From Candidatus Bathyarchaeota archaeon (GTDB lineage Archaea > Thermoproteota > Bathyarchaeia > Bathyarchaeales > Bathycorpusculaceae): a stretch of DNA of 64,000 nucleotides. The first letter of the stretch is position 1; each line of letters opens with the position of its first letter. The notes beneath the pieces were generated by a model. It saw only the letters and a list, made by a program, of their open reading frames with translations. It did not search any database and was not told the DNA's origin. The stretch covers positions 32,001 through 96,000 of the forward strand of contig CAWDYC010000004.1 in assembly GCA_963806535.1 (NCBI GenBank), written 5' to 3'. Positions 4,447 through 23,460 of the stretch are shown here, piece after piece. The position numbers and the translations under genes are program-made.

Positions 4447-4510
4447 GAGTAGACCGAGGGATTTGGACACGGCCCATAGTGGAGATATCACCAGCAGTAC
4501 CTCTTTTTTT
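4447..4510 (-). repeat. Degenerate tRNA-Ala 3'-end att-like site with conserved arm (copy A)
   Basis: GAGTAGACCGAGGGATTTGGACAC, 9 nt, TGGAGATATCACCAGC, AGTACCTCTTTTTTT. Confidence 0.7.
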
Positions 4511-4584
4511 GAATTATACTTTCTTTGAAAATGTCTTAATTTAGCTCCACCATAAAACTAAAATCATCGAAAAGATTACAGGTA

Positions 4585-5139
4585 GTGGTGCTAAGATTGT
4601 TTATTTCAGGTAAGTCAAATTTAACACGAAACATAATATCCCTTGCAATATTTGTTTTCATCATAATGGTTGTCGGACCAATAACAATGCAAGGAGCGTA
4701 CGCAGCTCCCACTATAACGTTAAACCCCACAAGCGGACCAACAGGCACAACCGTGCATATTTACGGTTCAGGATTCACACCGAACGGTCAAATACAGAGC
4801 CAACTTTGGAACGGAACAAGCGCCTACAGCTTCACCGCTGATGCAACTGGGAACCTAAATACGACCACCGTAGTTCCCAATGTAGAGTCAGGACCTTATG
4901 TGTTTATAGTAATAGATGCGTCGAGCCAAGGTACAACGCAAACACAATTCACAGTAACTCAATCATCAACTTCTCCTACGCCAACCACAACCTCTTCTAC
5001 GTCAGCATCGCCCTCACCAACGCCCAGCGTTCCAGAACTTCAGTTGCCAGTTGTTGTTCTAATCCTGTTCATTGCAACATCTAGCTTAGCCGTTTCGACG
5101 GTTAGAAAACGCAAGACGGTTACCATCCAAAGCATTTAA
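4585..5139 (+). CDS. Small secreted Ig/IPT-like protein with PEF-CTERM-like sorting signal
   Basis: Signal peptide; PTSGPTGTTVHIYGSGF motif; S/T/P linker; VPEL + TM helix + RKRK. Confidence 0.75.
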   Translation: MVLRLFISGKSNLTRNIISLAIFVFIIMVVGPITMQGAYAAPTITLNPTSGPTGTTVHIYGSGFTPNGQIQSQLWNGTSAYSFTADATGNLNTTTVVPNVESGPYVFIVIDASSQGTTQTQFTVTQSSTSPTPTTTSSTSASPSPTPSVPELQLPVVVLILFIATSSLAVSTVRKRKTVTIQSI

Positions 5140-5201
5140 AAAACCTATTTTGTATTTTTTTATAATAAACTTGTAAGAAGCCAAAGCCCCACTATACCAA
5201 G

Positions 5202-5265
5202 TGGTGGACCGGGGGGATTTGAACCCTTTCCCGTGCCGTGATTTCATTCGCAAAACCCCTTTTTT
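5202..5265 (-). repeat. tRNA-Ala 3'-end att-like site with arm (copy B, includes CCA)
   Basis: TGGTGGACCGGGGGGATTTGAACCC, 9 nt, degenerate palindrome, AAAACCCCTTTTTT. Confidence 0.85.
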
Positions 5266-5359
5266 CTTTTGTGCATACTTAGCGAAGGCGAACAAAATGT
5301 ACAAAATCGTTAGTTGCCCTCATTGCGGCAAAATTATCCCGGAGCATACACTCAAATGA

Positions 5360-5491
5360 GGATCAACACGAAAGATCGTAACTGGTCCAGAGTGTGGCAG
5401 TCAAAGTAACTGCAAAGATGAGGAGGGAAATACACGAATAGGAAAAATTCAGACCTACCTCTGCTGTGATTGCAGCCACAGGGTTTCTTAA
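5360..5491 (+). pseudogene. Remnant IS1-InsA-like zinc ribbon (N-terminus of an integrase or transposase)
   Basis: Hand translation: IVTGPECGSQSNCKDEEGNTRIGKIQTYLCCDCSHRVS*, resembling CPxCGS....KDG......QRYLCxxCG.RF; no in-frame start. Confidence 0.6.
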
Positions 5492-5718
5492 TAAATTGGT
5501 ATTTTCCAAGATTCTATAGAAAAATTTTCGCTTTTATGAGCGACTTAATAATCTGTTCGATTTCTTTTTCATTTAACATTAACTTAAACTTGATTCGACT
5601 TCGGGCTTTTCCACAAATATTTTCCAGAGGGCGATAATTGTTTACTGGCGCAAAGTAAAGAAAAACCAGAAATTGACAGCGTTTAAACAGCTCAGTCTAA
5701 AGCACAATTTAATTCTGG

Positions 5719-8700
5719 TTAGGTTGGTTCGATTCGATAGTTTTCTTTTCCATTCCTGTTTAGTTTTGGAATCGTCAGGGTGAATTTAGCTCCGTTTCCG
5801 GGGGTGCTGTTTTCCTCAATTTCCCATCCATAAATGTCCATCATTTTTTTGATCAAAAATAGTCCAAATCCTGTGCTGCCGCCTGTGCTATACCCTTCCT
5901 TGAAAAGAAACTGTTTATTCTTAGAAAGTACACCCACTCCATTATCCTCATAAACCAACTTAAGACAGTCCTGACCATCTGTATTTTCAAAGTGAACTCT
6001 TATAGTCGTGGCTTTTTGGCCGTATTTTCGGGTATTGTCGATGAAATTGTAGAACATCTGTCTTAGAAATGAATCAGCTAGAATTTTCAGACCATTGCAT
6101 TCATTAATTATATTGGGAAGTGAACCGGAAAAGAGTGAAACAGCTTCTTTTAGCTTGATCTCAACATCTATGTAAACCAAATCTTCTATTCCTAGTTGTT
6201 CATACATTTTTGCGAACTCAAAGATTTTCACAGATTCTGCCACGGCTCGCTCCATAGTGGTAAGCCCATCCACCACATCTACTAAATCACTGTGCTTTTT
6301 CTTGAGAAGATATGCACAACCATTTACTACTGACAATTTATTGCGAACATCATGTCTAGTTAAACTGCCCACGACACCTAATTTTTCGTTAACTAATACT
6401 AACTGATCCACCATCTGGTTTACTTTTTCTTCAGCTTTTTTGCGCTCAGTAACGTCCCTAGCAATGGCTGCAAAACAACGGGTCTCATTAATTCGTAGCT
6501 CGGTCATAGATATCTCTATTAAAAGTTCAGACCCGTCTTTTCTAAGGGCAGGGAGTTCTTGAATTTCGCCTGTAATCTGTATGTTTTCAGCTAAACTATT
6601 GGTTGAGGTTAGATTAGCATGGTTATTGCGAAACTTTGTCGATGGTATTATTTCGTTTAGTTTTTTGACAACTGCTTCTTCTTTTGTGTAACCAAAAATT
6701 TGTTCAGAAGCTGGATTCCAATATATTATTCGGTCTTTATCATCAAACAGAAATATTGCGTCAATTGCCGATTCACTAATGGCTCTAAACTTAGCGTCAC
6801 TTGCCTAGTAAATCTTGTTCCATAGACTTACGTTTAGTAATGTCTATACTTAGCTCCGATACAGCGATAATTTTGTTATTTTCATCTTTAATTGGTGTGG
6901 CAACGATTTCGACCCAATAGGGCTTGCCATCCACAGTAGTGGAGCAGTACTCATGTGAATCAGAAGTTGTTTTTCCTGCAAAAACCTTCGCAACACCACA
7001 GTCTGGACAAGGTGCCTCCAAAGTGTTTAGTGTCGAGTAGCATAGTTTTCCATTTACATTGCCTTTGTATCTTCTAATAAAGTCGTTTTCCCATAAAATA
7101 TGGTAGTCTTTGCTAATAATAACAAGACCGGCATCAATGCTTGCTGTAACTGACTCAAGCTTTTCTCGCTCTTGCCAAAGAGCACCGTTTGCTTCGATAC
7201 GTTCGGTAATGTCATTGTAGATTGCAATAATGTTTCCATTCGGTAGTTTGTATATCCAGTTTTCGCGCCAGCTACGAATGGTCTTTGTCATCTTTGTAGA
7301 GTGTCGCTGGATAATATTCTGGTTTTCCTGTTCGCCACACTCGTTTAAAAACCTCGAAAATACCAAAACTTTTTACGCTTGGAAAGACTTGTGTCACTCG
7401 CTTGCCAAGAACTGTATCCTTGCCTATTTTCTCGATTTTTTCTGCGGCAGTGTTGAAATTTCTAAAAATAAAATCTTCTCCGTTTTCAACCGCCTCATAA
7501 ATAGCAACTCCACTTGGCATGCTTGAAAACAATTGTCTAAATTGTTCTTCGCTCTGACGCAATGACGCCTCATTTCTTTTCCGTTCAGTGATGTCGGTTA
7601 CTAATTCCAAGTATTGCCGTCTGTCCATTATAATCTATCAACTTCGAATTAATTATTGCTTCAATTTTTCCACCATCTTTAGTGACGAGCTGGTATTCGT
7701 ATGGAGAAACATCTTCTCCTCTCATGTGCTTTGCATAAGACGCCTTCAATAAATCGACGCTTTCGGGACTAGCAATTGAAAGAAAGTTGAAGTTAGGAGA
7801 GTAGAATTCTTTTTTTGAATAGCCCAACGTGTCTTCGCATTTCTTGTTAGCATAAACCACTCTACTCTGAAGATTTATGAAAATCATATTAGGTGATTCT
7901 TCAGCAAGATTTCTGAATTTTTCTTCGCTTTCTTTCAAAGACTCTTCAGTTTTCTTGCGTTCAGTAATATCTGAATTGTAACCACTCCAAAGAATGCTGC
8001 CATCTTCTAACTTTTCTGGAGCAGACTGCCCCCACATCCAACGTATTTTTTGACCTGGAAGTTGTATTCGATACTCACATTGCCAAAGAGATAGATTTGC
8101 TGCCGATTGCTCAATTGAGGCGATTACTTTTTCCAAATCTTCTGGAACTATTGCTTTGGTGATCGGTGAAAAATCTTTTCGAACTTCCTGAGGCGAGCAA
8201 CCAAAAACATCGCGTATCTTGTTAGTTGCAAATGGTACACAAAATGTGCCATCAGGGCTTCTTAAAAACTGAAAAAGCATTCCAGGCGTTTGAGCAGCGA
8301 GTTTCAAAAAGCGAGTTTCGTGATCTTCTAATTCTTCTTTTGTTTTATGACGCTCCACAACTAGTTTGATGCTGTGTGCAAGTTCTCCATAAACGGTTTC
8401 TGGTGAGCCCTGTTTGTTATGATATCCATCTGCGCCAAGGTTTAGCGCCTTGATAGCTACTTCTTCCCTGCCTTTACCAGTAAATAGGATAAATGGAATT
8501 TGATTATTTTGTTCTCGAAGCTCTTTTAGAAATTCCAATCCATTCTTCTGAGGCATTTCATAATCACTAATAACAATATCAAACTTCGCAGATCTTATTT
8601 TTCTGAAGGCCTCATCAACACAACTTGCATGTTCAATTTCGAAGTTGCCTATTTCCAAAAGGATCAACTTTGAGATTTCGAGGATGGAAGAATCATCATC

Positions 8701-8790
8701 AACATGCAAAACTCGAATAACCTTTTCCTTATTTAGGGCAACTAAATCAGTTACTTTTACCTGTATTCCATTCTGGTTGAGGGTTTGCAT
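5719..8790 (-). CDS. Hybrid receiver-multiPAS sensor histidine kinase (frameshifted into several ORFs)
   Basis: N-terminal REC (VLHVDDD, SDYEMP), several PAS/PAC ends (DITERK), H-box RHDVRN, G-boxes DNGVG and GTGFGL-like. Confidence 0.9.
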
Positions 8791-9048
8791 CGTCTATACC
8801 CCCCGGACTAAAATAGTTGCTGAGTCAATAATAAGTCATTTATGAATTTAGAATACTAAAAAACTTGTTGATATCATGAAGTGGGACTTCCATTCTTCAT
8901 CATGATCTTTTATGTCGAGAGGATTATCTGTGTCCCAGCATCTTTTCAAAGTCAGGGCATGATTCATTTAATTTGCTAACAGAGAATTTAAGCCAATCCT
9001 ACAAAATTACAGGAGCCAAAGATGGTTCACAGATTTCTGGTTTATCTG

Positions 9049-9200
9049 CTATTTCTTGACCTGGAGAAGCTTATCTTTGACTGCTTCGGCAACAAACTCT
9101 GTCTGATTCCTTTATTCCAAAAGATTCTTCTCTAAGATCTTATCGACCTCGTTTCGTCAAGCTCGACAGGCAGTTTTACGTTGACATAGCGCTTCGTCAT
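9049..9200 (-). pseudogene. Ribbon-helix-helix (CopG-like) regulator remnant
   Basis: MTKRYVNVKLPVEL.. then, after a frameshift, EVDKILEKNLLE*RNQTEFVAEAVKDKLLQVKK*; has an in-frame stop as well as the frameshift. Confidence 0.65.
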
Positions 9201-9413
9201 AGGTACGGATTTAGCGGAAGCTTCTACGTCCTCACAATGTACGTTGTATTCTGGCATGCGTAAGGTCTTCCAAAATAAGGGGTATAGAGGAAGAGGTCTT
9301 TCGAGTTTTGTCTTATCATCAGAATCTATAAAAACAAACCTAATAATTCTAAGCCACTTCTTTCTATACCAGCCAATCCATGGAAGACCTTGGTGTTTGT
9401 AAGCGAACCGCAT

Positions 9414-9475
9414 GTGGACCGGGGGGATTTGAACCCAGGCAGAAGTGGAGATGTCACCAGCAATTCCCCTTTTTT
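9414..9475 (-). repeat. tRNA-Ala 3'-end att-like site with arm (copy C)
   Basis: GTGGACCGGGGGGATTTGAACCC, 9 nt, TGGAGATGTCACCAGC, AATTCCCCTTTTTT. Confidence 0.85.
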
Positions 9476-9604
9476 CTTCGGCGCACGCGCAGATGTATCA
9501 AAAATTACAAAACTTTTTTGGAAAAATAATAGGGAAAAAAAACAATTTGCTATCTTATAAGGATTTAGCAAGTTATAAGAATAAAACATCATATATAGAT
9601 ATTA

Positions 9605-9670
9605 TTGAGCGAAAGTGCAGTTTACGTTTTTGCTCTCGCTCAGCAAATAAAGGCTTGTGCTTTCGTTCAA
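9605..9670 (+). promoter_or_regulatory. 5'-UTR stem-loop of surface-protein paralog 2
   Basis: TTGAGCGAAAGTGCA pairs with TGTGCTTTCGTTCAA (with G-U pairs); lies between a TTATAA box (about 9573) and AAGGAAAGAA/ATG. Confidence 0.55.
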
Positions 9671-9693
9671 ATAAAATTAAAGGAAAGAAAAAA

Positions 9694-12438
9694 ATGAAAA
9701 TTTTAAAAAATAAAACCGCGACTATATTAATTGCAACATTTCTAATGATTTCAATGATGGCTTCATTAGCCTTAGTGCCTGTAAAAGGACAATTCGCAGA
9801 AATAACCCCTCCAGCAGGATCTACAGTGCCATCATATGCTTTTCTTAACATAGCACCTAACCCAGCAGGTGTAGGCCAAACAGTGACCCTAGACATGTTC
9901 CTTGCATCGCCTCTACTCACAAGTGAAGGCGCAACGAATATGACGATAGTAGAAACAACACCAAGCGGAACGACAACTACGCTAGGACCATTTACTTCTG
10001 ATGCTACCGGCGGAACATATACAACAATTGTACCTGAAACAACTGGTAACTATACGTTCCAGTTCTTCTATGGTGGACAATTAATGTTCAACGGTCTTTA
10101 TACAGGACCGAGCCATACGGGCGTAGAAACACTTGTAGTTCAGCAAACTTCAATACCATTAAGCTCATATCCAATAACGCCGCTTCCAACGAATTACTGG
10201 CAGAGTCCGGTCACAGCAGAGAACAGTCAAAACTGGTACGCAATTACTGGACCTTGGCTTGGCTACGGTTCCGTTACATTCGCTTCAACAGGTGGCTACA
10301 ACAATACTGGCAACTTTAACCCATACACCCAAGATGTTCTGTCTGGACATGTTCTTTGGACAAAGCCTTGGGCAGTAGGCGGTCTAGCTGGTGGAGACCT
10401 AGGCGGAACTGAACTCAGTAACTTCTGGTCAACCTCTCAGTATTGGCCAAAGTTTGCCCCAGTCATAATGAACGGCATACTCTACTCAACCTGGTACACA
10501 ACAACCACAGGATACTCAAACGGCATCATTGCAATGAACTTGTACGATGGACAAACCCTATGGACACTAAACACCACTAATCCGTTGCTTTGCGGCATGG
10601 AAACTCAATGGAAAACAATTAACATGTACGGCGTTATAGGTCCGTACATCATTACATCAGGAACTCTACCTGGCGTAAATGATGGATTCGGAACAACCGT
10701 CGGGATGTTCGGTCCAACCCTTGGACCACTGGCAGAGTTTAACCTGTATGATGCCTTAACTGGAACATACGTTCTTAGCATTGTCAATGGCACCGCAACT
10801 CCAACATTTACGACAGATGCCAACGGAAACATAATCGGCTACTACACTGATTCTACCCCTGGTACAATCACTACATATGGAACCACAGCCGCAATGGGTG
10901 GATTTCCAACGGTGACAGGGAAAGTGACCATTACGCCTACTAGTCCTCCTTATGTGGTTGAGTGGAACATGTCAAATGCCCTTGCCGCAATAGGAGCCCC
11001 AGGCCAGAGTCAAGCTTGGGGTTGGTCGCCACCAGCGGGCTCAGTGGCTAACTTCGATTACGGAAATGTGTGGGCCACACCGATGGCTAATGTTACTACA
11101 GACACAGGCGCTCCTCTAAACAACGGACAACTAGCTTACGCTACGCAAATAAACGGTATTGGCGGTATGCTAACTAACAACGCAGTGGTATTGACTGGCG
11201 GATTCACTACTGGACAAGGGACTGGAGGCGAGCAAGATGGCTGGCTAATTGTAAGCGCAAAGGATGCAACCACTGGAGCTACGCTATTTGCCAAGAACTA
11301 TACATATCCAAATGTTGAGGCTTTGTTACCTTTCACGAGGACAATAGTGCAAGTCACAGACGGAGAGATAATAATATGCAACCAGGTAAACAATCAGGTT
11401 GACGCCATTAATGCACGTACTGGTAATATCGATTGGAAGACAACACTTCAAGGGTCCAGCGGCGGAACTCCAAATCTATATAACGTCTTTGGCATCGCAA
11501 TTCGCAATGGTCCAGGCATGTCCATCTATGAAGGCTTCGGAGGAGACATATGGGGTGTAAACGATGCGACTGGAAACATAATGTGGTACACGAATACAAC
11601 TGCAATCTTGGGCAATCCAGGGATTGAAACTCCGTACGGCATATGGCCACTGTGGGTCTTCGGTTGCACTTGCGTATCCAACGGTATTGCATACCTGGCT
11701 GTCGGCCATGAGTACAACCCGCCACTATTCCACGGAGCACAACTGCTAGCATTAAACTTGACAAATGGAAATCTAGTATGGAGTGAACTAGACTTTTCCG
11801 TTGAATCCACATCAATTGCACAAGGCATCGTACTGACGCGCAACGCTTACGACAACCAACTCTACTCCATGGGCAAAGGACCAAGCGCAATGACAGTCAC
11901 TGCACCAGATGTCGGAGTCACAACTGCTACTCCAATAACAATAACTGGCACAACAATGGATGTCTCTGCAGGCGCATCGCAAGAAGCGGTCAAAGCAAAC
12001 TTCCCCAATGGTCTACCATGCGTTTCCGATGCTAGCGAGAGTCACTGGATGGAGTATGTATATCAGCAGCAACCGTATCCGACCGGAGCAACAGGTGTTC
12101 CAGTCACTCTAAGCGTAATAGACGCCAACAACAACTTTAGAACCATCGGCACAACCAAAACCGACGCTAGCGGACACTACTCCTATACATGGACACCTGA
12201 CATACCAGGAAACTACACACTCATAGCGGCATTCGCAGGCTCCAACTCATACTACGGATCATCAGATGAAACGAGCTTTTATGCTAGCTCGCCACCATCA
12301 ACACCGACACCCACCGCAACAACAGCCTCTAACTTGGCAACAACATCAATGCTAGAACTTGGAATTGTAGCCATCATAATCGTCATCATCATAATCGGCG
12401 TCGTATTGGCGTTGCTGATGATGAGAAAACACGCATAA
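9694..12438 (+). CDS. PQQ-like beta-propeller surface protein (paralog 2)
   Basis: True start MKILKNK with signal peptide; APNPAGVGQT, GHEYNPPLFHGAQL and PNGLPCVSDAS motifs; C-terminal TM. Confidence 0.9.
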   Translation: MKILKNKTATILIATFLMISMMASLALVPVKGQFAEITPPAGSTVPSYAFLNIAPNPAGVGQTVTLDMFLASPLLTSEGATNMTIVETTPSGTTTTLGPFTSDATGGTYTTIVPETTGNYTFQFFYGGQLMFNGLYTGPSHTGVETLVVQQTSIPLSSYPITPLPTNYWQSPVTAENSQNWYAITGPWLGYGSVTFASTGGYNNTGNFNPYTQDVLSGHVLWTKPWAVGGLAGGDLGGTELSNFWSTSQYWPKFAPVIMNGILYSTWYTTTTGYSNGIIAMNLYDGQTLWTLNTTNPLLCGMETQWKTINMYGVIGPYIITSGTLPGVNDGFGTTVGMFGPTLGPLAEFNLYDALTGTYVLSIVNGTATPTFTTDANGNIIGYYTDSTPGTITTYGTTAAMGGFPTVTGKVTITPTSPPYVVEWNMSNALAAIGAPGQSQAWGWSPPAGSVANFDYGNVWATPMANVTTDTGAPLNNGQLAYATQINGIGGMLTNNAVVLTGGFTTGQGTGGEQDGWLIVSAKDATTGATLFAKNYTYPNVEALLPFTRTIVQVTDGEIIICNQVNNQVDAINARTGNIDWKTTLQGSSGGTPNLYNVFGIAIRNGPGMSIYEGFGGDIWGVNDATGNIMWYTNTTAILGNPGIETPYGIWPLWVFGCTCVSNGIAYLAVGHEYNPPLFHGAQLLALNLTNGNLVWSELDFSVESTSIAQGIVLTRNAYDNQLYSMGKGPSAMTVTAPDVGVTTATPITITGTTMDVSAGASQEAVKANFPNGLPCVSDASESHWMEYVYQQQPYPTGATGVPVTLSVIDANNNFRTIGTTKTDASGHYSYTWTPDIPGNYTLIAAFAGSNSYYGSSDETSFYASSPPSTPTPTATTASNLATTSMLELGIVAIIIVIIIIGVVLALLMMRKHA

Positions 12439-12510
12439 ACACAAGCAAGCCAAAAAATCAATTTCCCCTTCCTTTTTTTCTTCTTAAAAATCATATACAT
12501 AAGGGTATGG

Positions 12511-12568
12511 ACAGAGTTTTCATTTGGCGTTTTTCTTCCTTCAGTTTGTCCAGAGCCTCAGCAAACCC
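12511..12568 (-). repeat. Orphan leader-like repeat module, copy 1
   Basis: 12537-12568 is identical over 32 bp to 19827-19858; minus strand reads GTTTGCTGAGGCTCTGGACAAACTGAAGGAAGAAAAACGCCAAATGAAAACT. Confidence 0.8.
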
Positions 12569-12602
12569 TCAACGGCAAAATGAAATTAAGCAAATACAAG
12601 TC

Positions 12603-12638
12603 TTTTGACAAAAAGTGGTCTGGAGGGATTTTGCACTC
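12603..12638 (-). repeat. Highly degenerate tRNA-Ala 3'-end att-like copy
   Basis: TTTTGACAAAAAGTGGTCTGGAGGGATTTTGCACTC aligns with TTTTGACAAGAGTGGACCGGGGGGATTTGAACC at 20022-20054, in the same context. Confidence 0.5.
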
Positions 12639-13023
12639 TTGCCACAAAATACGATGAAATTACTGTTAGCGGAACTCAAGTACAATCCTGCAAAGAAACT
12701 AAGAAGGTTCTCAAATGCCTGGAACTCATTAAGCGTCTCAAAGGTGTACTTTTAAACGTAGTAGCATATGTATAAGTATATATACATTGTTTTTTGGCGC
12801 ATCTCCCCCAAAATCCCTTTTCTTTTTGATTTTTCAGCGGATAATTAGCGAACCGAATCATAGATATTTCCGAAAGGAGAACGGCCGAAAAGACTATCTC
12901 TTTACATAAAGAGGGAATCACAATTAAACCAATTGTTCCAGTAAAGAATTGCCTTATGAGGCGGTTTTTTTGGTCATTCGCCTTAGCGCATAAACCATTT
13001 TGTTTCTGTTCTGAGCCAAGATT

Positions 13024-13812
13024 CTAATGTGTTCTATCCCACAAATCGTCAAAGTAGTGTGTGGCTAGTTTTACAACATGCAGGTTGTTTGACCATAACG
13101 AGGGTAGACCATTTTCCTTACATACGGCTAAGGTTACTTCTTTTCTGTCAAAAATACGCATTCCATCTGGGTCAAAGTTGGACAGGTATTTAATTTCAAA
13201 GAAGGGATTTTTCGCTAAGGCTTGCGGCTTTCTCAGTGCTAAATCTCCCTCCGCCTTTTGTGTCATCATCCGAATTTTTACGCCTCTCCTCATTGCCCTC
13301 TTGTGAAATTGGAGATCGCGAAATAACGTTTTCTCAACGGCTTTCAATGGAATAGCGATATCTATACTGGTTTGAGCCGACTGAGTTAGCCTTTCGAATA
13401 TTTTTAGAAGAAGTGTTTTTTCTGAAGTAATTATGAACTGTGACTCCTCTTCATGAGGAGCTATTTTAGCATTATTGTTGTGAAAATTATTAAGTAGCGA
13501 GCTTGTTTTCTTTTGTATTTCAGCATATTCCTTTTTTCTTTTTTGAAGCAGAATTGAAATGCCTTCCTCTAGCGGCGTGGCTCTGTATATGGTCGGTTTA
13601 GTTATGATTTTTTCTGCAAGTCCCAGTTCTTGCAACGTAGGCATTATTCGGTAGATATCTTGCCGAGCCATGTTTGAAGCCTTTGCAATTGTTTGAACAT
13701 TTGCTTTGCCAAGATTTAAAAGATTTAGATACATTCTAGCCTGTAAAAGGCTGAGTCCGCAATCGATTATTGTTTGTATGTTTTCGTCCTGAATCATGGA
13801 AACCCTTTCCAA
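13024..13812 (-). CDS. TrmB-family transcriptional regulator
   Basis: GLSLLQARMYL..L wHTH, RQDIYR..LQELGL; PLD-like C-domain (IFDRKEV, FDDLW). Confidence 0.9.
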   Translation of the reverse strand: MERVSMIQDENIQTIIDCGLSLLQARMYLNLLNLGKANVQTIAKASNMARQDIYRIMPTLQELGLAEKIITKPTIYRATPLEEGISILLQKRKKEYAEIQKKTSSLLNNFHNNNAKIAPHEEESQFIITSEKTLLLKIFERLTQSAQTSIDIAIPLKAVEKTLFRDLQFHKRAMRRGVKIRMMTQKAEGDLALRKPQALAKNPFFEIKYLSNFDPDGMRIFDRKEVTLAVCKENGLPSLWSNNLHVVKLATHYFDDLWDRTH

Positions 13813-14255
13813 TTAGAAATCCTATATTTCAACCAGAGCTTGCTCAGCCCTATATCTTCTTAATCCATTGCACTCTAAAATTAAAAAAAAGGATAGGAAA
13901 ATTTTGTTTGACATTTTTCTTTTCACTTTAATTTTGTGGGTTAGCATTTAATTAAGAGCGCTAATAAGACTCACTCACTTATCGTGAATATAAAAAAGCG
14001 ATAATCCTTTTTTGAGATCACAACCAGCATTTGAGTTTTAGACACTTTTATCTGAAGAAGGAGAAAATATCATAGAAAGAATGCGCAGGGAAGAAAAACG
14101 CAAAACGAAAACTCTAACTTTCAGCGTAATATTGTCACTATACTCAATTCTTTTCACTTTATCTGAAGAAGTATGGATTACATAGGCTTAAACCTCTTCA
14201 AAATGATTAATCCACAAAAAACAGATAGAGAAAAAGTGGGAATGCGTGGTTGTGA

Positions 14256-14308
14256 TTTTCACTGTCTTTTCTTCCTTTGTATATCCAGAGCCTTAGCAAA
14301 CTTTTGAC
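14256..14308 (-). repeat. Orphan leader-like repeat module, diverged copy
   Basis: TTTTCTTCCTTTGTATATCCAGAGCCTTAGCAAAC similar to 12531-12566. Confidence 0.65.
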
Positions 14309-14450
14309 GTAGCGTTTTTTGAGCTTAGAGTGGCAGACTGTTTTTACTGAAATTTTACTGGGTTGATTTGTAAGAAGAAGTTCTTGTTACAAGTGTTTAA
14401 AACCAAAATGGACCGATGTTAGGCGCACAGAAAATAAGGAAAGAACAAAC

Positions 14451-17156
14451 ATGAAAATTGCTAAAAATAAAACTATAGTTATTACGATTGCTACATTCCT
14501 AATACTCTCAATGACAGCTTCAATGATACAAGTACCAAATGCTAATGCACATACACCTGCATGGCAGGTTCCAACATACGCCTACATAGCTGTTGCCCCT
14601 AACCCTATAGGGGTTGGTCAGACAGCGTGGATATATGTTTGGATTGACTTATCTTTTCCGAATGCACAACTAGCAAACAACTATAGATGGCATAACTACA
14701 AACTTACCATTACAACACCTAACGGTACAACTGAAACAAAGATATGGGATGTTGTCTCGGACACTACGTCAAATCAGGGTTATTCATACACTCCTACCGA
14801 AGTTGGAACGTACACCCTTAACTTTACTTTCCCAGGACAGGACTACAACACATACAGCCGTGACACCACCTTAGCATTGGTTAACGATACTTTTCTGCCC
14901 AGCACTGCGTCAACGACGCTCATTGTTAAGCAAGAGCCAATACCTGCTGCAATAACAAGCTATCCATTGCCGACTAACTACTGGAGTCGCCCAATATATG
15001 GTGAGAACACTGACTGGTGGTCAATTTCGTCAAACTGGCTAGGTAGTGGTTCACCAGGATCTGGTAGCATGATCGGACCAAATGCGCAGATGTCTCCAGG
15101 AGATGCCGTAGGCTCTGCCACTAATCATGTCATGTGGACATACCAGCTTCAAGAAGGAGGAGTCGTCGGAGGAAGCACTGTCGCTCAAGGAGCCAACTGG
15201 TTTGGTGGGACTGCCTACAATCCTAGATACCAGAATCCAATAATAATGAATGGATACCTATACTACACGAAGCCAGTAAACTGGGCGCCCAGCGCAGGAA
15301 CTGGAGGGCCAACTGTCTGTCAAGACCTATGCACAGGACAAATTATTTGGTCTCGAGATGATGTACCTCAGCTTTCATTCGGCTACATATATAACGTTTG
15401 GACCCCCAATTACCACGGCGTTTATGCAGGAATTTTATTCACTGCTGGATGGGCCCGCGCTTTTGATGCATACACTGGAGACCCACTGTTCAACGTAACT
15501 GGCGTTCCCACAGGCGCAACAGTACTCGGTCCACAAGGCGAACAATTGAAATACGTCATGGCGAACGCAGGTACCATTAATGATCCTGATTGGCGTTTGG
15601 GTCAATGGAACTCGTCCAAACTATTTTTCATCTCTGGATCCGCATCACCAGCAATTACAAACATGACTGGAACAACTGTTACAATCGGGTCAGTAGTCGG
15701 TTCAACTCTCACTGGAACCCTAATAGTCGACGCAAGCATTTCAAATTCGAGTTTATCTACATGCCGTTATGACTGGAACACTTCCATACCATGGCTCAAC
15801 ACAATGGGTGCCACCACAATTGGGTCAAGTCCCGGAGCAAATCCCGTTACAATACTTGCGGCTTTCTACGGAAATATGTTACTTTGCAGAAACGGCACAT
15901 ACCCCACTATATCTCCAAGTTCAGTACCCACAGCAACTTGGGCTCCGTACACATACTTCGCCGTTAACCTCAATGCATCTAGGGGTGCAATTGGTTCGAT
16001 ACTGTGGATGCAGACATATAACCCCCCACCAGGCAACCTTACTGTAATATTTGCCGGAGCAGATCTGAAGACTGGTGTCTTCGTTGAAAACTATAGAGAA
16101 GGTATGCAATATGTTGGATACAGTCTGTCAACAGGGCAGAAATTATGGGGTCCAACTGCGTCTCAAGCTGACTGGGACTATTATGGTAGCCCAGGACCTG
16201 GCTCTTTAGACAACCAAATTGCTTACGGGAGACTCTATAGCGATGGAATGGCAGGGATACTTTACTGTTACGATTTGACGAATGGAAACCTATTGTGGAC
16301 GTATGGTAATGGCGGAGAAGGCAACAGCACTTACAGCGGCTTTAACACAGTTTACGGTAATTATCCAACAATGATAACTGATGTAGGCAACGGGATAATA
16401 TACACGGTTACCTGTGAGCACACTATCACTGCCCCAATCTACAAGGGTGCATTGGCGCGTGCCATTAATGCAACTGATGGAACAGAAATCTGGTCTCTTT
16501 CAGATTTCACCGGTGCATTCTCTGCTTCCCCAGGCTACGCTATCGCAGATGGCTATTCAACATTCTTTAACGAATATGACAGTCAAGTGTACAGTCTTGG
16601 TAGAGGACCTAGTGCTACTACAGTTTCAGCGCCAGACATCGCTATATCATTCGGGGCATCCATAGTAATCAAAGGTACAGTCACTGACATTTCTGCTGGT
16701 ACAAAGCAGAGCCAGCAAGCAGCTGACTTTCCAAATGGTGTTCCAGTTGCATCTGATGATAGTATGAAAGATTGGATGGGTTATGTTTATCAGCAAAAAC
16801 CGCTGCCGACCAACGCAACCGGCGTTACGGTGTCCATTAGTGTATTGGACTCTAACAACAACTCTAGAACTATCGGCACTACAACAACTGATCTCAGCGG
16901 AGCTTACAGCTACCAATGGAAACCAGACATACCAGGGAAATACACGGTTTACGCTTCTTTCGCTGGAACTAATGGTTACTGGCCATCATCTTCAGAAACA
17001 AGCTTCGCAGTCGACACAGCAATCCCAACACAAATTCCGATAATAAATGCGTCATCCAACGACTCAATGTATTTCGTAGCTAGCACAGTTGCTATAATCG
17101 TTGCAATAGCTATAGTTGGTGCTCTAATACTGATATTAGTTAGGAAGCGACCGTAA
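14451..17156 (+). CDS. PQQ-like beta-propeller surface protein (paralog 3, more divergent subfamily)
   Basis: Signal peptide MKIAKNK; APNPIGVGQT; PNGVPVASD..WMGYVYQQKP; TM + RKRP. Confidence 0.9.
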   Translation: MKIAKNKTIVITIATFLILSMTASMIQVPNANAHTPAWQVPTYAYIAVAPNPIGVGQTAWIYVWIDLSFPNAQLANNYRWHNYKLTITTPNGTTETKIWDVVSDTTSNQGYSYTPTEVGTYTLNFTFPGQDYNTYSRDTTLALVNDTFLPSTASTTLIVKQEPIPAAITSYPLPTNYWSRPIYGENTDWWSISSNWLGSGSPGSGSMIGPNAQMSPGDAVGSATNHVMWTYQLQEGGVVGGSTVAQGANWFGGTAYNPRYQNPIIMNGYLYYTKPVNWAPSAGTGGPTVCQDLCTGQIIWSRDDVPQLSFGYIYNVWTPNYHGVYAGILFTAGWARAFDAYTGDPLFNVTGVPTGATVLGPQGEQLKYVMANAGTINDPDWRLGQWNSSKLFFISGSASPAITNMTGTTVTIGSVVGSTLTGTLIVDASISNSSLSTCRYDWNTSIPWLNTMGATTIGSSPGANPVTILAAFYGNMLLCRNGTYPTISPSSVPTATWAPYTYFAVNLNASRGAIGSILWMQTYNPPPGNLTVIFAGADLKTGVFVENYREGMQYVGYSLSTGQKLWGPTASQADWDYYGSPGPGSLDNQIAYGRLYSDGMAGILYCYDLTNGNLLWTYGNGGEGNSTYSGFNTVYGNYPTMITDVGNGIIYTVTCEHTITAPIYKGALARAINATDGTEIWSLSDFTGAFSASPGYAIADGYSTFFNEYDSQVYSLGRGPSATTVSAPDIAISFGASIVIKGTVTDISAGTKQSQQAADFPNGVPVASDDSMKDWMGYVYQQKPLPTNATGVTVSISVLDSNNNSRTIGTTTTDLSGAYSYQWKPDIPGKYTVYASFAGTNGYWPSSSETSFAVDTAIPTQIPIINASSNDSMYFVASTVAIIVAIAIVGALILILVRKRP

Positions 17157-17163
17157 AAATGCC

Positions 17164-19686
17164 AAGCCTATCGGCGTTGGACAAACAGTAAACGTCAACT
17201 TCTTCCTAGCAGTACCGATACAATCCAGTGAAGGACCAACAAACATGACTGTCAAAATCACAAACCCAGACGGTAGCACTGAAACCAGAGGTCCATACAC
17301 AGGCGACGCAACAGGCGGGTCCCACTTTGACTTTGCTCCAGATAAAGTCGGCAATTGGACTTTCCAGTTCTTCTACGGGGGGCAAACAACAACAACCGGC
17401 GTCGGATTTACAGACCTTAAAGAGATGCCCAGCCAAAGTGAAGTCTATACACTCGTAGTGCAACAGGAACCGATAACTCAAAGTTCATACCCAATAGCAC
17501 CGCTACCCACAAAGTACTGGGAAACCCCAGTCTCAGCGCAAAACGTCCAAGAATGGTACAAGATCATGGGTCCTTGGCTTGGAACCGGATTAGTTGGGTC
17601 AGCAAAAACTGGGCTATACAATGAATCGAGCACTTACAATCCATACACTGATTCAGTACTTTCGGGGCACGTTCTCTGGACTAAACCTTGGTGCGCAGGC
17701 GGTGTGGTTGGTGGAGCCGCAGGCGGAACAGAAGACACAGGAAACTACTGGTCAACAAGGCAGTACATGCCTCAATATGCCCCCGTGATAATGAATGGCA
17801 GGATGTATTCTACGTGGTATGCAGAAACACAAGGGTACTCAGCTGGCATTGTTTGCACGGACCTCTATACAGGTGAAACACTGTTCACAATAAACACAAC
17901 TAGTGTGTTGCAATGCGGAATGGAAACCGAATGGAAGACAGCTAACATGTATGGCGTCGTTGGTCCATACCTTATTACTGTCGGCACTCTTTCAGCATCC
18001 GAAACTGGCGGGACTAAACCAGCCAATGTTGGAACACAATACAACATGTATTCTGCCTTTACTGGCAATTATGTCCTTAGCATTGTTAACGGTACTTCAC
18101 TGACGCTTAAGACGGATGATAATGGAAACTTGATAGGTTACTACATCAACAGTACTGTTGGCACAATGAACATCTATAATCAAGCAGGTCTCAAAGCGAC
18201 GGTAAACATCACTGCAAGCCAACCCTTCCTATGCTGTTTCAACATGTCGCAAGCACTCTGGCAAAGTGGCAGTAGTTTTCAATGGAGTCCATCCCAAAAT
18301 GCAGTTGTTAACTTCGGGTTGGGAGTTATGTGGGCGAAACCAGTACCTACCCAAATTAACGGCGTACCTATAAACAACCCCCCTCTCAACTTAGGTATAT
18401 CCCCATGGTGTGCGCTGACTGGCAATTCAGTGATATTGACTTCTGGAATCATTCACATGGCAAATCAACAGCCAGGCTATATAGTCTTGTGTGGCATGGA
18501 TCAAACTACCGGCGAAGTACTAATGTGCAAGAACTACACCTATCCAGAGTGTCAGTCATTACAACCCTTTACTAACGATCAATACATCGTCATAAATGGA
18601 CTCGTGGTCTTGGTTAACATGGAAAATTGGAAATGCGACGCTATCGACTTAAGCACCGGCAACATAGCATGGAAGACAACTCTCACAACTCCATACGGTG
18701 ACGGAACACCAAACGTATACTCAATACTTGGTGGCATAAACTTCATCGGACAAGCAAATGGCAGGCTGTTTATTGAGGGCTTTGGCGGAGACATGTGGGC
18801 TCTTAACGCAACGACCGGAAACCAACTGTGGTATACCAACACAACAACTCTCATTGGAGCTCCAAGCCTTGAATCACCATACGGCGTCTGGCCGTTGTGG
18901 CCTTGGTCTGGTACCCTGTGTTTCTCAAATGACGTCGCTTATTGTGCTGTAGGTCATGAGTATGATCCGCCGCTGTTCCATGGTGCACAACTTCTCGCGG
19001 TGAACCTAACTAGCGGAGAGCTAGTCTGGAACGAATTAGGCTTTTACGATGTTAGTCTTTCAATTGCTTATAACACTCTGCTGACGCTGAATTGTTACGA
19101 CAATCAGATATATGCCTTCGGCAAGGGACCAACCTCTACCACTGTTAATGCCCCCAGCGTTGGAGTGACAACCGCTACGCCGATAACGATTACGGGCACT
19201 GTGATGGATGTTTCCGCTGGTGTACAGCAGTCTCAGGTTGCAAAAGACTTCCCCAATGGGCTTCCATGTGTTTCTGACGCAAGCCAGAGCAAGTGGATGG
19301 AATATGTCTACCAAGACCAAGTAATGCCGAGCAATGCTACAGGCGTCACCGTTACACTAGGCGTTCTTGACTCTAACAATAACTTCCGACAAATCGGCAC
19401 GACAACATCCGATGCTAGTGGTAAATATGGTTTCACTTGGACTCCAGATATACCAGGCAATTATACACTCTATGCAAGCTTTGCAGGCTCCAACTCTTAT
19501 TATCCATCGTCAGCTGAAACATACATCTATGCCAGCACTCCAGCACCAACAGTATCTCCGTATCCTGTGCAATCGAATCCTTTGCCTTTAACTGAAATGT
19601 ACATTGCTGCAGCAGCAGTTGCGATGATAGTTGCAGTAGCTATAGTCGGCGCTCTACTACTTGTAGCAGTTAGGAAACGACCATAA
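17164..19686 (+). CDS. PQQ-like beta-propeller surface protein (paralog 4) lacking promoter and signal peptide
   Basis: Homology starts at KPIGVGQTV 7 bp after the upstream stop; first in-frame ATG at 17245; rest intact, ending TM + RKRP. Confidence 0.8.
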   Translation, partial: KPIGVGQTVNVNFFLAVPIQSSEGPTNMTVKITNPDGSTETRGPYTGDATGGSHFDFAPDKVGNWTFQFFYGGQTTTTGVGFTDLKEMPSQSEVYTLVVQQEPITQSSYPIAPLPTKYWETPVSAQNVQEWYKIMGPWLGTGLVGSAKTGLYNESSTYNPYTDSVLSGHVLWTKPWCAGGVVGGAAGGTEDTGNYWSTRQYMPQYAPVIMNGRMYSTWYAETQGYSAGIVCTDLYTGETLFTINTTSVLQCGMETEWKTANMYGVVGPYLITVGTLSASETGGTKPANVGTQYNMYSAFTGNYVLSIVNGTSLTLKTDDNGNLIGYYINSTVGTMNIYNQAGLKATVNITASQPFLCCFNMSQALWQSGSSFQWSPSQNAVVNFGLGVMWAKPVPTQINGVPINNPPLNLGISPWCALTGNSVILTSGIIHMANQQPGYIVLCGMDQTTGEVLMCKNYTYPECQSLQPFTNDQYIVINGLVVLVNMENWKCDAIDLSTGNIAWKTTLTTPYGDGTPNVYSILGGINFIGQANGRLFIEGFGGDMWALNATTGNQLWYTNTTTLIGAPSLESPYGVWPLWPWSGTLCFSNDVAYCAVGHEYDPPLFHGAQLLAVNLTSGELVWNELGFYDVSLSIAYNTLLTLNCYDNQIYAFGKGPTSTTVNAPSVGVTTATPITITGTVMDVSAGVQQSQVAKDFPNGLPCVSDASQSKWMEYVYQDQVMPSNATGVTVTLGVLDSNNNFRQIGTTTSDASGKYGFTWTPDIPGNYTLYASFAGSNSYYPSSAETYIYASTPAPTVSPYPVQSNPLPLTEMYIAAAAVAMIVAVAIVGALLLVAVRKRP

Positions 19687-19750
19687 ACACTTTAACAAAA
19701 CAAATTTCCTTTCCCTTTTTTTGGGACTAAAATAATATGAGTTTAAGATT

Positions 19751-19987
19751 GGGGGCTGAGTGGGCTTTGGATAATATTTATGTAGTCGCGGTTAAGAATG
19801 GTTTAGTTTTCATTTCCATTCTTTTCTCCTTCAGTTTGTCCAGAGCCTCAGCAAACCCCCTTAGAATTAATGGTGTGTGATATGGGGCTGACTAGGTTTT
19901 GGTTAAAATATGATCTCTATTCAATTTTGCGAAAAGCGCATTTGCGATTGCGTTCCTTTCCTTAGGTTTGTCCAGAACTTCAGCAAA
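19751..19987. repeat. Degenerate tandem duplication (about 130-bp unit) containing two leader-like modules
   Basis: GGGGCTGA..TTTGG.TAA at about 19752 and 19884; CCTT..GTTTGTCCAGA.C.TCAGCAAA at 19827-19856 and 19959-19987. Confidence 0.65.
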
Positions 19988-20031
19988 TAAATGAATAATC
20001 AAAAAATTGAGAAGATCACTTTTTTGACAAG

Positions 20032-20090
20032 AGTGGACCGGGGGGATTTGAACCTACTATCAAATGGAGACATTACCTGCCCTCTTTTTT
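20032..20090 (-). repeat. tRNA-Ala 3'-end att-like site with arm (copy D)
   Basis: AGTGGACCGGGGGGATTTGAACCT, 9 nt, TGGAGACATTACCTGC, CCTCTTTTTT. Confidence 0.85.
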
Positions 20091-20258
20091 CTTTTGTTTC
20101 TCGATTTTAATGCTTAAGAGTTGATAACACCAAAGGAATATACCCGGAAACGCAAATAGCGATCACACCGAAGTGCAGAGTGAAGTCTCGTTGCGATATG
20201 AACAAAATTCTTGTTTTTAAGTTTGGATAGATCCAATCACCTAGTTTTTTATAATCTG

Positions 20259-22316
20259 CTAACGCGCTTCCCTTGCTCGAGGTGGGTACATGGTTATAAC
20301 TATATCTCTGCCAATTGTTCCTTCAGTTCCGGGGCCGGAATATTTTGACGCAGGATGAAAGAAAGTTACGAACGCGTCTAAACCATTGTACTCAATATTT
20401 GTTTTTACGCCGGAAGGTAGCATGTACTCAACTACCCCGCTTCTGAGTTCACTGTAGCCTTCGAGCAGTATGCAAGCAGGCGGCAGACTAAGTGATGAAA
20501 GAAGCGGGATAGGCTTAGTCCATCCAGCGAAAACAATGTTCCCTTGAACTCGTACCTGGAGCTCGTCTTTTTTGACGAGATGTACGTTTTTTTCGGCAGG
20601 AGTGCCTGCATTTTGTGTTTTCTCAAGCTCTACAGCTCTGGGATTGTCTGTAACGATAGCTGCTGGTACGTAAGCATAGCCTTTTGGCGTTTCAAGCCAC
20701 AAGTAAACCACTAGCCTGTTACCACCACCTTGCTGGGATTGCTCGTTGAAATGGTTGACCCAAATCATCATATCAGGCAGGTTAAAGCTGTCTGGCGGAT
20801 GGATAACGGCGTGTCCGCTGCTACCGTAGACTCTTGTTATGTCCTTGAGCCAGTTTTTGCCTGGGCATTTCTTGGCGTTGCCAATCGTGTTCAAAATGTC
20901 TTTTTCGGTGATTATACCCGGTTTCTCCACGACTTCATGGATCATTTTCTGGTATGCCCCATCTGGCTTGGACCAAACGTGTTCTTCTTCACGAAGAGGA
21001 GTGCTTGCACGTATAGGCGGTTTCAGGATAGAGTCCAGAGTGATGACTGAAGGAACGGATGCTTTTTTCCAAACTTCATTTAACATCTTTTTAGTCTTTT
21101 CCACGTATTCAAAATCATCAGTATAGAAATGCCGCGTTAAGGCGGATTTCTGATTGGGGGAAACTTGAGACTGGAAGAGGGTTTTTCCATCAACGATTAC
21201 AGTGTCAAAGTAGCTTGTAGACACATGCTTGACAGCACAGCATTTCATTAGTTCTTGAGCAGCAATCAAGTTTTCCTTGATTATGGGCGACATAATTTTA
21301 ACGGAGATTCCTCTTTCAATCTGTTCTCTCAGCAGGGAAATATGTTTCCAAGATTCAATGAGACCTTTTGAAGAGATCATCATCATGATTTCCTCTTGAG
21401 CTGACTTTAGAGCCTCATTGTAGGTCTCAAGGGCAGTGTGAGCGTCACTGATAACGCGTGTTGTCGGTGTTGGTTTACCAGTTTCAATCTCCGAAATTTT
21501 CATATTTATGTCTGTGGAGTCGATCCACAAATCCTCAAAGACAGCCGTAAACGCTTGTACCAGAGACTTACAGTTCGTCCAAAGGCATACGTCATCCTTT
21601 TCTGCCTTTTCCGTTCTTGGCGTGATGAAGAACAATATTTCTTCGTTATCTCTTGCAACCATTCTGGGAAAAAGGCTTAAACCTAAATCAGGGTTTCTTG
21701 CCTTCAGGTTGAAGTTGGTCTTAGATGTTCTCTTGAGAATTGTTTTCATGATATTCAGATTTTTTTCTGACAATTCGGTGAGAAAACGATACGTAATTTG
21801 TGACCTCAAAGGATGACTAAAGGCCACATCGAAAATGCCAAATTGATCAGCACGCATCATGCTTGGAACAGTGGTTGCTGTTAACAGTTGATGTTTAGTA
21901 TCTAGAATCATCTTAGATATTCTTGAGTAGATTCTTTTGTTTCCTTTGATTACAGCAAATTTTTCTAAAGAAGGTTCTAACTCTGTATTGTGTTTTTTCT
22001 TTAGGTAGTCAAGAAGTTCTTTCCTGCTTTTCTCTATCAGGGCAACTTCCTTTTGCCTAGCTCCAATAATAGAATCTAGAATGTTCTCGAAGGGAACTAC
22101 TGTGAAGTGTGTGGGAAACTCTACAGTTGACTCCGCAAAACCCTTGGCTTGAAGCCTATTTAGAATGCGAAAAACCTGCGCCTTATCTTTCCCAAGAAGT
22201 CTGGCGATTTCGTTAACTTTCATCGCATCGTGTTTGGCGAGGAAAATGTACACCTCTGCCTCTTTTTCGGTCAAGCCAGAATTAATGAGAACCTTTTTTA
22301 TTGTTTCCTCGCTCAA
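20259..22316 (-). CDS. Large TrmB-family regulator (wHTH, two PLD-like domains, extra C-terminal domain)
   Basis: GLTEKEAEVYIFL wHTH; two TrmB sugar-binding-like domains (FEDLW; IVDGK..LNEVW). Confidence 0.85.
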   Translation of the reverse strand: MSEETIKKVLINSGLTEKEAEVYIFLAKHDAMKVNEIARLLGKDKAQVFRILNRLQAKGFAESTVEFPTHFTVVPFENILDSIIGARQKEVALIEKSRKELLDYLKKKHNTELEPSLEKFAVIKGNKRIYSRISKMILDTKHQLLTATTVPSMMRADQFGIFDVAFSHPLRSQITYRFLTELSEKNLNIMKTILKRTSKTNFNLKARNPDLGLSLFPRMVARDNEEILFFITPRTEKAEKDDVCLWTNCKSLVQAFTAVFEDLWIDSTDINMKISEIETGKPTPTTRVISDAHTALETYNEALKSAQEEIMMMISSKGLIESWKHISLLREQIERGISVKIMSPIIKENLIAAQELMKCCAVKHVSTSYFDTVIVDGKTLFQSQVSPNQKSALTRHFYTDDFEYVEKTKKMLNEVWKKASVPSVITLDSILKPPIRASTPLREEEHVWSKPDGAYQKMIHEVVEKPGIITEKDILNTIGNAKKCPGKNWLKDITRVYGSSGHAVIHPPDSFNLPDMMIWVNHFNEQSQQGGGNRLVVYLWLETPKGYAYVPAAIVTDNPRAVELEKTQNAGTPAEKNVHLVKKDELQVRVQGNIVFAGWTKPIPLLSSLSLPPACILLEGYSELRSGVVEYMLPSGVKTNIEYNGLDAFVTFFHPASKYSGPGTEGTIGRDIVITMYPPRAREAR

Positions 22317-23106: not shown

Positions 23107-23460
23107 TTGAGTAAAGAAAAGATGCTCAAAACACTCGTAAGTTTAGGGTTCACAGAAACAGACGCCCAGGTCTACTTCTATCTCACAACCGAAGGTCTCC
23201 AAAAAGCTGCAGACATAACTGAAGCACTGAAACTTCACAAGCAGCAACTCTACAGAAGCCTGAAACGTCTGTTTAGGAAAGGCATAGTAAAGACTACTCT
23301 TGAGCGTCCTTCACGGTTTTCGGTTGCGTTATCGATCGAGAAAACTTTAGACTTGTTGATCGAAACCAAAAAGGAACAAACTTTGGAGTTGCAAGCAAGC
23401 CGCGAAGAACTCCTTTCTTCTTGGAGATCTATGATTGAGAAGCATTCTTCAGACAGCTGA
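23107..23460 (+). CDS. Stand-alone TrmB-type wHTH protein
   Basis: LGFTETDAQVYFYL...QQLYRSLKRL..KGIV. Confidence 0.85.
   Translation: MSKEKMLKTLVSLGFTETDAQVYFYLTTEGLQKAADITEALKLHKQQLYRSLKRLFRKGIVKTTLERPSRFSVALSIEKTLDLLIETKKEQTLELQASREELLSSWRSMIEKHSSDS

Follow-up and report, generated by a model that had tools for sequence, protein, structure and literature searches.

In lambda-type recombination, the element's attachment (att) site, attP, shares its core with attB and carries conserved extra-core sites on the element only, and an additional N-terminal domain precedes the core-binding and catalytic domains of the integrase. For tandem arrays of integrated elements, a bacterial counterpart exists in the concept of accretion and of cis-mobilizable elements (CIMEs). 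Lambda Int binds arm sites (PMC8371274). Two archaeal types have been described: SNJ2-type haloarchaeal integrases, whose core overlaps the 3′ end of a tRNA gene, with P and P′ arms and the 3′ end of the integrase gene abutting the att site (PMC5861418), and the 'suicidal' SSV-type integrases, which target tRNA genes, carry att inside their open reading frame (ORF) and persist as decayed remnants after integration (PMC7253208). Archaeal tandem arrays form by re-use of att and commonly lose the integrase after integration (PMC6563490, PMC8371274), and archaeal integrons hold arrays of attC cassettes (PMC9668308). Here, we analyse a 64,000-nt stretch of the genome of a Candidatus Bathyarchaeota archaeon (contig CAWDYC010000004.1, positions 32,001–96,000), called the window below, in which four copies of the 3′ end of tRNA-Ala(TGC) are each followed by a palindromic arm. 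We are confident that these four units are attR scars left by a family of tyrosine integrases with an N-terminal zinc ribbon.

The tRNA-Ala(TGC) gene is on the − strand, and all four units are on the + strand, downstream of its 3′ end. Each starts with a copy of that 3′ end (the core), which begins one or two bases beyond the discriminator base, reaches the 5′ strand of the T-stem and ends in GAACCC or a variant of it, and continues with exactly 9 unrelated nt, a 16-nt palindrome of the type GGNGAYRTCNCC, 0–4 nt, CCYC and six or seven T residues. Unit A (4447–4510) is degenerate and the oldest-looking scar, with the tRNA-Ala copy at 4447–4470, the spacer at 4471–4479, the palindrome TGGAGATATCACCAGC at 4480–4495, CCTC at 4500–4503 and T7 at 4504–4510. 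Unit B (5204–5265) has an exact core (5204–5226), a spacer (5227–5235), the degenerate palindrome CCGTGATTTCATTCGC (5236–5251), CCCC (5256–5259) and T6 (5260–5265). The core of unit C (9414–9475) is also exact (9414–9436) and is followed by the spacer AGGCAGAAG (9437–9445), the palindrome TGGAGATGTCACCAGC (9446–9461), CCCC (9466–9469) and T6 (9470–9475). Unit D (20033–20090) has a core ending in GAACCT (20033–20055), a spacer (20056–20064), the palindrome TGGAGACATTACCTGC (20065–20080), CCTC (20081–20084) and T6 (20085–20090). An earlier reading of this DNA from its sequence alone had located the same four units, with palindromes starting at 4480, 5236 (degenerate), 9446 and 20065, and we recovered them all.

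The 20-nt core GGACCGGGGGGATTTGAACC, antisense to the tRNA 3′ end, occurs exactly at 5206, 9416 and 20035, with none expected from 100 shuffles, and no further exact copy was found elsewhere in the 2.9-Mb genome. With up to two mismatches, TGGAGATRTCACC matches the window seven times against 1.72 expected, a count reached by none of 100 shuffles; three of the seven are arms A, C and D, and a fourth is arm A on the opposite strand. The intact tRNA-Ala(TGC) gene (23602–23676, − strand; ARAGORN and Rfam) is the integration target and the attL side of the array. It is the sole tRNA-Ala(TGC) that ARAGORN calls in the genome, and one of only two real tRNAs called in the window. As the sequence-only reading had said, this gene lacks the arm; it has tRNA body where the units carry it. 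The same reading had reported additional patches shared by units B and D, which are attributable to chance: the local alignment of 5262–5520 with 20092–20350 scores 18, shuffled sequences gave a mean of 17.5 (standard deviation 2.2) and 95 out of 200 of them scored as high.

Pfam detected no integrase between 4447 and 23602; a tyrosine integrase inside the island is seen in relatives. There, a tyrosine recombinase of about 400–445 amino acids is encoded immediately downstream of intact tRNA genes and convergent with them, its stop codon 46–68 nt before the tRNA 3′ end. This protein (PF00589) comprises an XerA-like core-binding and catalytic part, a conserved C-terminal tail of about 45 amino acids and an N-terminal CxxC...CxxC zinc ribbon with a weak likeness to the zinc-binding domain of IS1/IS1595 type. 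The cysteines C37, C40, C64 and C67 are invariant in all 10 aligned integrases. Matches to the NCBIfam models for integron integrases are below threshold (56 bits versus a cut-off of 265). At E ≤ 1e-25, the family was retrieved from 196 of the 401 genomes sampled from the class.

The arm is tied to this family by six attL/attR pairs. In each of them the arm-bearing copy is attR and repeats the 3′ end of exactly the tRNA that flanks the integrase; the integrase, about 430 amino acids long, sits at the tRNA-proximal attL, and the copy is 6–24 kb distant, upstream of the gene and on its strand. The pairs come from genomes G217 (tRNA-Ala(TGC), 33-nt repeat), G352 (tRNA-Leu CAG), G320 (85-nt repeat), G318 (tRNA-Pro), G324 and G383 (contig C22). 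A direct repeat of the 3′ part of the intact tRNA at the far end of the island is seen both in the window and in the six pairs of its relatives. Without exception, the repeat stops on its right side somewhere from the T-loop end to 8 nt past it, which places the crossover in or 3′ of the T-loop on the tRNA; the palindrome is outside the region of identity and is therefore an element-specific arm. Intact integrases beside tRNA-Ala(TGC), which the sequence-only reading had proposed to look for next to the motif, were found in G217 and in G038. The latter belongs to the window's own genus, and its arms closely resemble those of units B and C: it carries the variant CCGGTGATTTCACTCGCAA, resembling the arm of unit B, and the spacer and arm of unit C recur nearly identically in G038 and G352.

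Where elements lie in tandem, an integrase or its C-terminal stump is encoded directly upstream of a core and arm at loci L008, L020, L027, L035 and L069, and an integrase or C-terminal remnant holds that position in three of 80 metagenome loci. Integrase stumps of every length were found beside units. The array is accounted for by elements of this family having integrated serially and site-specifically at the tRNA gene, and in attP the arm is part of the element's side. The pairing of arm-bearing copies in the islands of relatives bears out the recombination-site architecture that had been proposed from the letters. It also lends substance to the proposal that one mobilizing system unites all modules, as far as a common signature and an arm that forms the attR of zinc-ribbon integrase islands in relatives are concerned; mobilization at the present day is doubtful, as the modules contain neither integrase nor P′ (the second box described below) and the genome's own copy of the integrase is broken.

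Across the class, the core and arm were searched for as GGATTTGAACC-N10-TGGWGANNTYACC with up to two mismatches. The pattern was retrieved in 125 of the 401 genomes, with up to 19 copies per genome, while the reversed pattern gave one match each in two genomes. Searching one genome per prokaryotic species for the exact pattern returned at least 124 stretches. Among the 80 of these that were listed, 74 are titled Bathyarchaeia, Bathyarchaeota or Bathycorpusculum, and the other six loci belong to five records, namely four short contigs of otherwise-named bins and one 'archaeon'. The arm is thus almost confined to records of Bathyarchaeia. To the left of the T-loop, the copies differ in sequence and correspond to the 3′ ends of many tRNAs; comparison with the tRNAs of the window's genome traced 45 of 81 arms to 11 tRNA genes. 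The logo of the 81 arms reads GGtGGGATTTGAACCC-N8-GTGGAGATaTCaCCCGcaaa-cccc-TTTTTT, without conservation past the T-tract or left of the core, and the tract of five to eight T residues is among its best-conserved parts. Variants of the arm exist, for example GGCGACATCGCC and GGAGATATCACC. In a minority of arms (L107, L108, L121, L153 and similar), the palindrome is followed by CCCGAAGACTTAACTATTAAT...GATATACC instead of the C-run and T-tract, and L116, L117, L138 and L161 have a second CCCGCAA box about 20 nt beyond the first. No consistent gene was found downstream of the arm.

The distance between core and arm is constrained, being nearly fixed, to within 1 nt, across genomes. When 4–16 nt were allowed between GATTTGAACC and TGGAGAT, the gap was 10 nt in 15 of the 23 matches, 9 nt in seven and 11 nt in one. 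The 9-nt spacer, which the sequence-only reading had taken to be exact, is so in all four units of the window and nearly so across genomes. Searched on its own (TGGAGATRTCACCCG), the arm occurs 39 times in five genomes, and 25 of these occurrences have an exact ATTYGAA, the T-loop complement, at precisely 12 nt upstream (10–14 nt allowed); at least two more have a T-loop with one mismatch. Neither a palindrome that is common without the core nor a loss of spacing, either of which would have told against a recombination site, was observed.

A second box lies on the integrase side of the core in part of the sites. Here, the right half of the palindrome with its C-run (AYATCRCC..CCCC) recurs in the same orientation. 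Counted with the regular expression N[AG]TC[GA]CC-N5-14-CCC over 21 attL regions, this P′ box stands at −37 to −41 from the tRNA end in 14 of them, against 1 of 21 on the reverse strand and 0.06 expected from shuffles. These 14 sites, 13 of tRNA-Leu together with that of G320, are mutually related. The P′ region also shows a C-run followed by T-rich sequence, just past the integrase stop codon. No conserved P′ sequence was found in the modules of the window. Direct repeats that flank the core in this manner would resemble arm-type sites, a likeness for which the 21 regions offer partial support. An attP assembled from both sides would read integrase 3′ end, P′, core, 8–10 nt, palindrome, C-run and T-tract. 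As a separate observation, the attL regions L067 (G217), L077 (G038), L290 and L264 hold a partial second acceptor/T-arm copy instead of the ATCGCC box; such partial copies, lying between the integrase stop codon and the tRNA end, were seen in elements of tRNA-Ala, tRNA-Ile and tRNA-Val.

Several observations weigh against our interpretation. No integrase was found nearby at 74 of the 80 metagenome loci, nor at 25–26 of 30 loci inspected with flanks of ±1.5 kb. Genomes of the genus that hold the motif are not likelier to hold the integrase (both in 19, motif only in four, integrase only in 14, neither in three). Given this lack of association at the level of genomes, the link between arm and integrase rests on the pairs at the level of loci, and the paired loci are related and hence non-independent. 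The P′ box is absent at both tRNA-Ala attL sites, the type found in the window, and the full box is also absent from one tRNA-Ile and two tRNA-Pro sites. Free attP was not seen, since a scan of IMG/VR gave a single match, at a contig end and without an integrase beside it, and none of the 80 metagenome loci, mostly fragments and therefore weak evidence in this respect, had terminal repeats or lay on a circular contig. Finally, a run of G residues counts seven in tRNA-Ala(TGC) and six in copies B–D, which is unexpected for the displaced ends of a working tRNA; the difference fits a crossover 3′ of the run, or a later slippage or shrinkage of the run.

The scheme that we consider probable as a whole combines serial attR scars with an arm that serves the integrase family as the P-arm of attP and as a putative protein-binding site. 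The attP of an incoming element would consist of a core that duplicates the stretch of the tRNA between the T-loop region and a point just beyond the 3′ end and, on one side, of a P-arm made up of 8–10 free nt, the GGNGAYRTCNCC palindrome continuing as CCCGCAA, the C-run and the T-tract. Integration would regenerate the tRNA beside the element and leave the element's arm and core copy at its far side. Later integrations at the regenerated tRNA would push older scars outward, producing the order A-B-C-D-tRNA. The palindrome would be a binding site phased with the T-loop core: on the sequence, about 22–23 bp, or two helical turns, separate the centre of the one from that of the other. The T-tract may in addition end integrase transcription in the excised form.

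What binds the arm, and what binding does, we infer from sequence. The likeliest binder would be the integrase, the sole protein consistently present at the sites, perhaps through its extra zinc-ribbon domain, which is the natural candidate. Whether the integrase itself contacts the palindrome is, in our estimate, an evenly balanced question. Another candidate is an island-borne accessory protein of the winged-helix type (TrmB- or MarR-like), which could act on the arm either architecturally or by setting directionality. A dimeric protein of this type would fit a near-perfect palindrome, TrmB-like genes occur in modules C and D and next to the tRNA (13024–13812, 20259–22316 and 23107–23460) as well as in the islands of relatives, and a MarR-like Orf3 was proposed to bind the conserved P/P′ arms of SNJ2 (PMC5861418, PMC8371274). 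However, these are large dispersed families with at least 10 paralogues outside islands in this genome, and no single one of them was present in all the islands examined, the integrase being the only consistent protein. We regard an accessory winged-helix binder as rather unlikely.

The arm could also have a mainly transcriptional role, in which the C-run and T-tract terminate the integrase transcript across the excised attP or insulate the island, and the palindrome is secondary. The strong conservation of the T5-8 tract, an integrase that reads towards the core and arm, and a P′ region with a C-run and T-rich sequence after the integrase stop codon would all agree with such a role. It nevertheless leaves the palindrome and its spacing of ±1 nt from the T-loop without explanation, and RNAalifold detected no conserved pairs in 52 arms, so we consider it improbable. 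The same alignment of 52 units gave no sign of a structured RNA or of tRNA-like covariation, and Rfam matches at the units (E ≤ 1) were limited to a chance-level CRISPR-DR10 at 5174–5224. An apparent covariation of core and C-run in copy A (GAGG/CCTC versus GGGG/CCCC), noticed by eye, is broken in copy D.

Modules without an integrase might alternatively be live cassettes, captured and shuffled at the tRNA by an integrase supplied in trans, much as in integrons or cis-mobilizable elements; the 65-bp unit would then serve as cassette site. Four genomes of the genus do have arrays of short modules (0.3–10 kb) with unrelated cargo at this tRNA-Ala locus, and most units have no integrase nearby. 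Yet integrase remnants at all stages of decay lie beside units, the window modules have no P′ sequence and contain several genes each, on both strands, no intact integrase of the family is present in the genome and there is no attC-like fold. Live cassettes thus seem doubtful to us. We attach as little weight to a wider proposal, according to which the tRNA-proximal hot spot would be a gene-capture platform whose cassettes carry sites of about 65 bp (a tRNA 3′-end mimic plus a phased palindrome), zinc-ribbon integrases would insert, excise and reshuffle these cassettes in trans, and the palindrome would be a non-cleaved recombinase site setting directionality without an excisionase. If true, such a platform would be a functional analogue of the integron that is archaeal, double-stranded and anchored at a tRNA.

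That the arm is coding sequence of an SSV-type partitioned integrase spanning the att site, a reading examined because the palindrome translates as G-D-I/V-S/T on both strands with wobble-like variation and its frames are open through all four copies of the window, is hardly credible, since no long ORF crosses the unit on either strand at about 30 loci, in-frame stops interrupt the spacer of about 10 of 31 copies when the tRNA-sense frame is read and of two well-conserved copies when the other is, and the integrase stop codon lies 46–68 nt before a core that is not inside the ORF. The arm is non-coding and without a conserved RNA fold.

Returning to serial integration, the modules of the window are most likely fossils of decayed islands and immobile relics. 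We read them so because the integrase of this genome is broken, most arms have no integrase and stumps of every length exist. The single member of the zinc-ribbon family in the genome (C3:472426-473628, outside the window) is riddled with stops, and C-terminal stumps occur at two other places. This broken integrase adjoins a tRNA-like sequence that ARAGORN does not call, possibly an intron-bearing tRNA. Directly after arm B, a stop-interrupted stretch (5348–5488, + strand) probably represents a remnant of the integrase zinc ribbon; by tblastn, where it is the best match in the window, it aligns with integrase residues 38–86 at a marginal E of 0.03–0.05, and a small ORF (5297–5359) begins it. 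The same arrangement, an arm followed by an N-terminal integrase remnant, was found at L025. The enzyme at 29068, which the sequence-only reading had suggested for recombination tests, does not belong to the cognate family: the overlapping ORFs 29068–29550 and 29543–30373 (+ strand) have a sub-threshold match to PF00589, a weak tyrosine-recombinase signal, and no significant tblastn match with the zinc-ribbon integrases. Beside them lies an HMGL/LeuA-like gene (27391–28641, − strand), whose N-terminus looks cut or frameshifted, as the profile match starts at position 84.

The fixed side of the hot spot is marked by an adenosine-kinase gene (23781–24224, + strand), the conserved chromosomal neighbour of tRNA-Ala. 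The cargo differs from module to module: a small secreted protein between A and B; a histidine kinase, PAS proteins and a response regulator between B and C; three large secreted PQQ-propeller/Ig-like proteins and a TrmB-PLD regulator between C and D; and TrmB-like regulators between D and the tRNA. The tRNA-Ala/adenosine-kinase locus of G352, G187 and G038 has other cargo between its units, and the genes seen at this locus in relatives include a cbb3 oxidase cluster, a nitroreductase, a CBS protein, a signal-peptide peptidase and a PIN protein. Such different cargo at one tRNA-Ala locus indicates a hot spot that is dynamic at the scale of the genus. Synteny of the window modules with these three genomes is limited to the tRNA/adenosine-kinase side, the units and paralogous propeller genes.

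The cbb3 cargo was found in locus L036 of G352 (10593–16536), a same-genus genome, where a cytochrome c assembly gene and a cbb3-type oxidase cluster (COX1, FixO, FixP-like) lie between two core and arm units at the tRNA-Ala locus. Large secreted PQQ-propeller/Filamin/Ig-like proteins are a recurrent cargo of islands in both the window (9445–12438, 14451–17156 and 17245–19686) and relatives (L047, 13174–15777; L210, 9093–11625). In locus L038 of G187, the array includes a second, near-full-length copy of tRNA-Ala (17152–17224; 93% identity over 74 nt), on the strand opposite to that of the functional gene. Elsewhere in the window, a 75-nt tRNA with anticodon GCT (34291–34365, − strand; Rfam 55 bits) is labelled 'Ser' by ARAGORN; at this length it has no room for the long variable arm that serine tRNAs carry, and a normal 87-nt tRNA-Ser(GCT) is present on another contig.

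For the window itself, these results describe an ordinary outcome, namely fossil integration scars. At the level of the class, the arm of about 50 bp is a simple and specific marker for the far edge of islands integrated at tRNA genes throughout Bathyarchaeia. Almost all knowledge of this group comes from metagenome bins, in which island borders are hard to set. It also defines the likely attP layout of a very common and uncharacterized family of zinc-ribbon integrases, and it offers a concrete test case for arm-type or accessory sites in archaeal integrases, without adding a new principle. The cargo travelling at these sites includes secreted propeller proteins, regulators, restriction systems and even a cbb3 oxidase cluster. 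To our knowledge, no IHF- or Xis-like partner has been described for this integrase system. The main texts of Creative-Commons papers in PMC and of bioRxiv preprints, as far as accessible and including work on viruses and proviruses of Bathyarchaeia, contain no prior description of the arm or of a zinc-ribbon integrase in this class. In the 2021 review of archaeal tyrosine recombinases, the terms 'arm-type', 'arm site', 'heterobivalent' and 'zinc' do not occur, and arm binding is mentioned for lambda only (PMC8371274).

Compared with the systems named at the outset, the sites described here have in common with the lambda type that the core is shared with the tRNA, that a conserved arm is present on the element only and that the integrase carries an additional N-terminal domain. 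They differ in that the arm is a palindrome, at a distance from the T-loop of about two turns, that a zinc ribbon forms the additional domain and that the arm site is putative. Of the P and P′ arm sites of the lambda type, the P box is general here, and P′ was found in 14 of 21 attL regions, nearly all of tRNA-Leu. The SNJ2-type integrases are likewise archaeal and share a core at the tRNA 3′ end, conserved flanking arms and an integrase 3′ end at the att site; the integrase considered here differs in its N-terminal zinc ribbon and in its host class, and one arm is common to elements of many tRNAs. The likeness to the SSV type extends to archaeal hosts, tRNA targeting and decayed integrase remnants, whereas the ORF of the zinc-ribbon integrase ends before the core. 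Integrons resemble the array in having cargo modules that each end in a recombination site of about 60 bp, often without a nearby integrase. In contrast to integrons, the modules here carry several genes each, on both strands, and end in a site that includes a piece of tRNA and lacks a single-strand fold of the attC type; the matches of the zinc-ribbon integrase to integron-integrase models stay below threshold. Tandem arrays of archaea and bacteria provide the counterpart for serial integration at a regenerated tRNA leading to direct-repeat arrays, from which the Bathyarchaeia arrays are set apart by very short integrase-less modules and by an arm that is conserved across the class at every scar.

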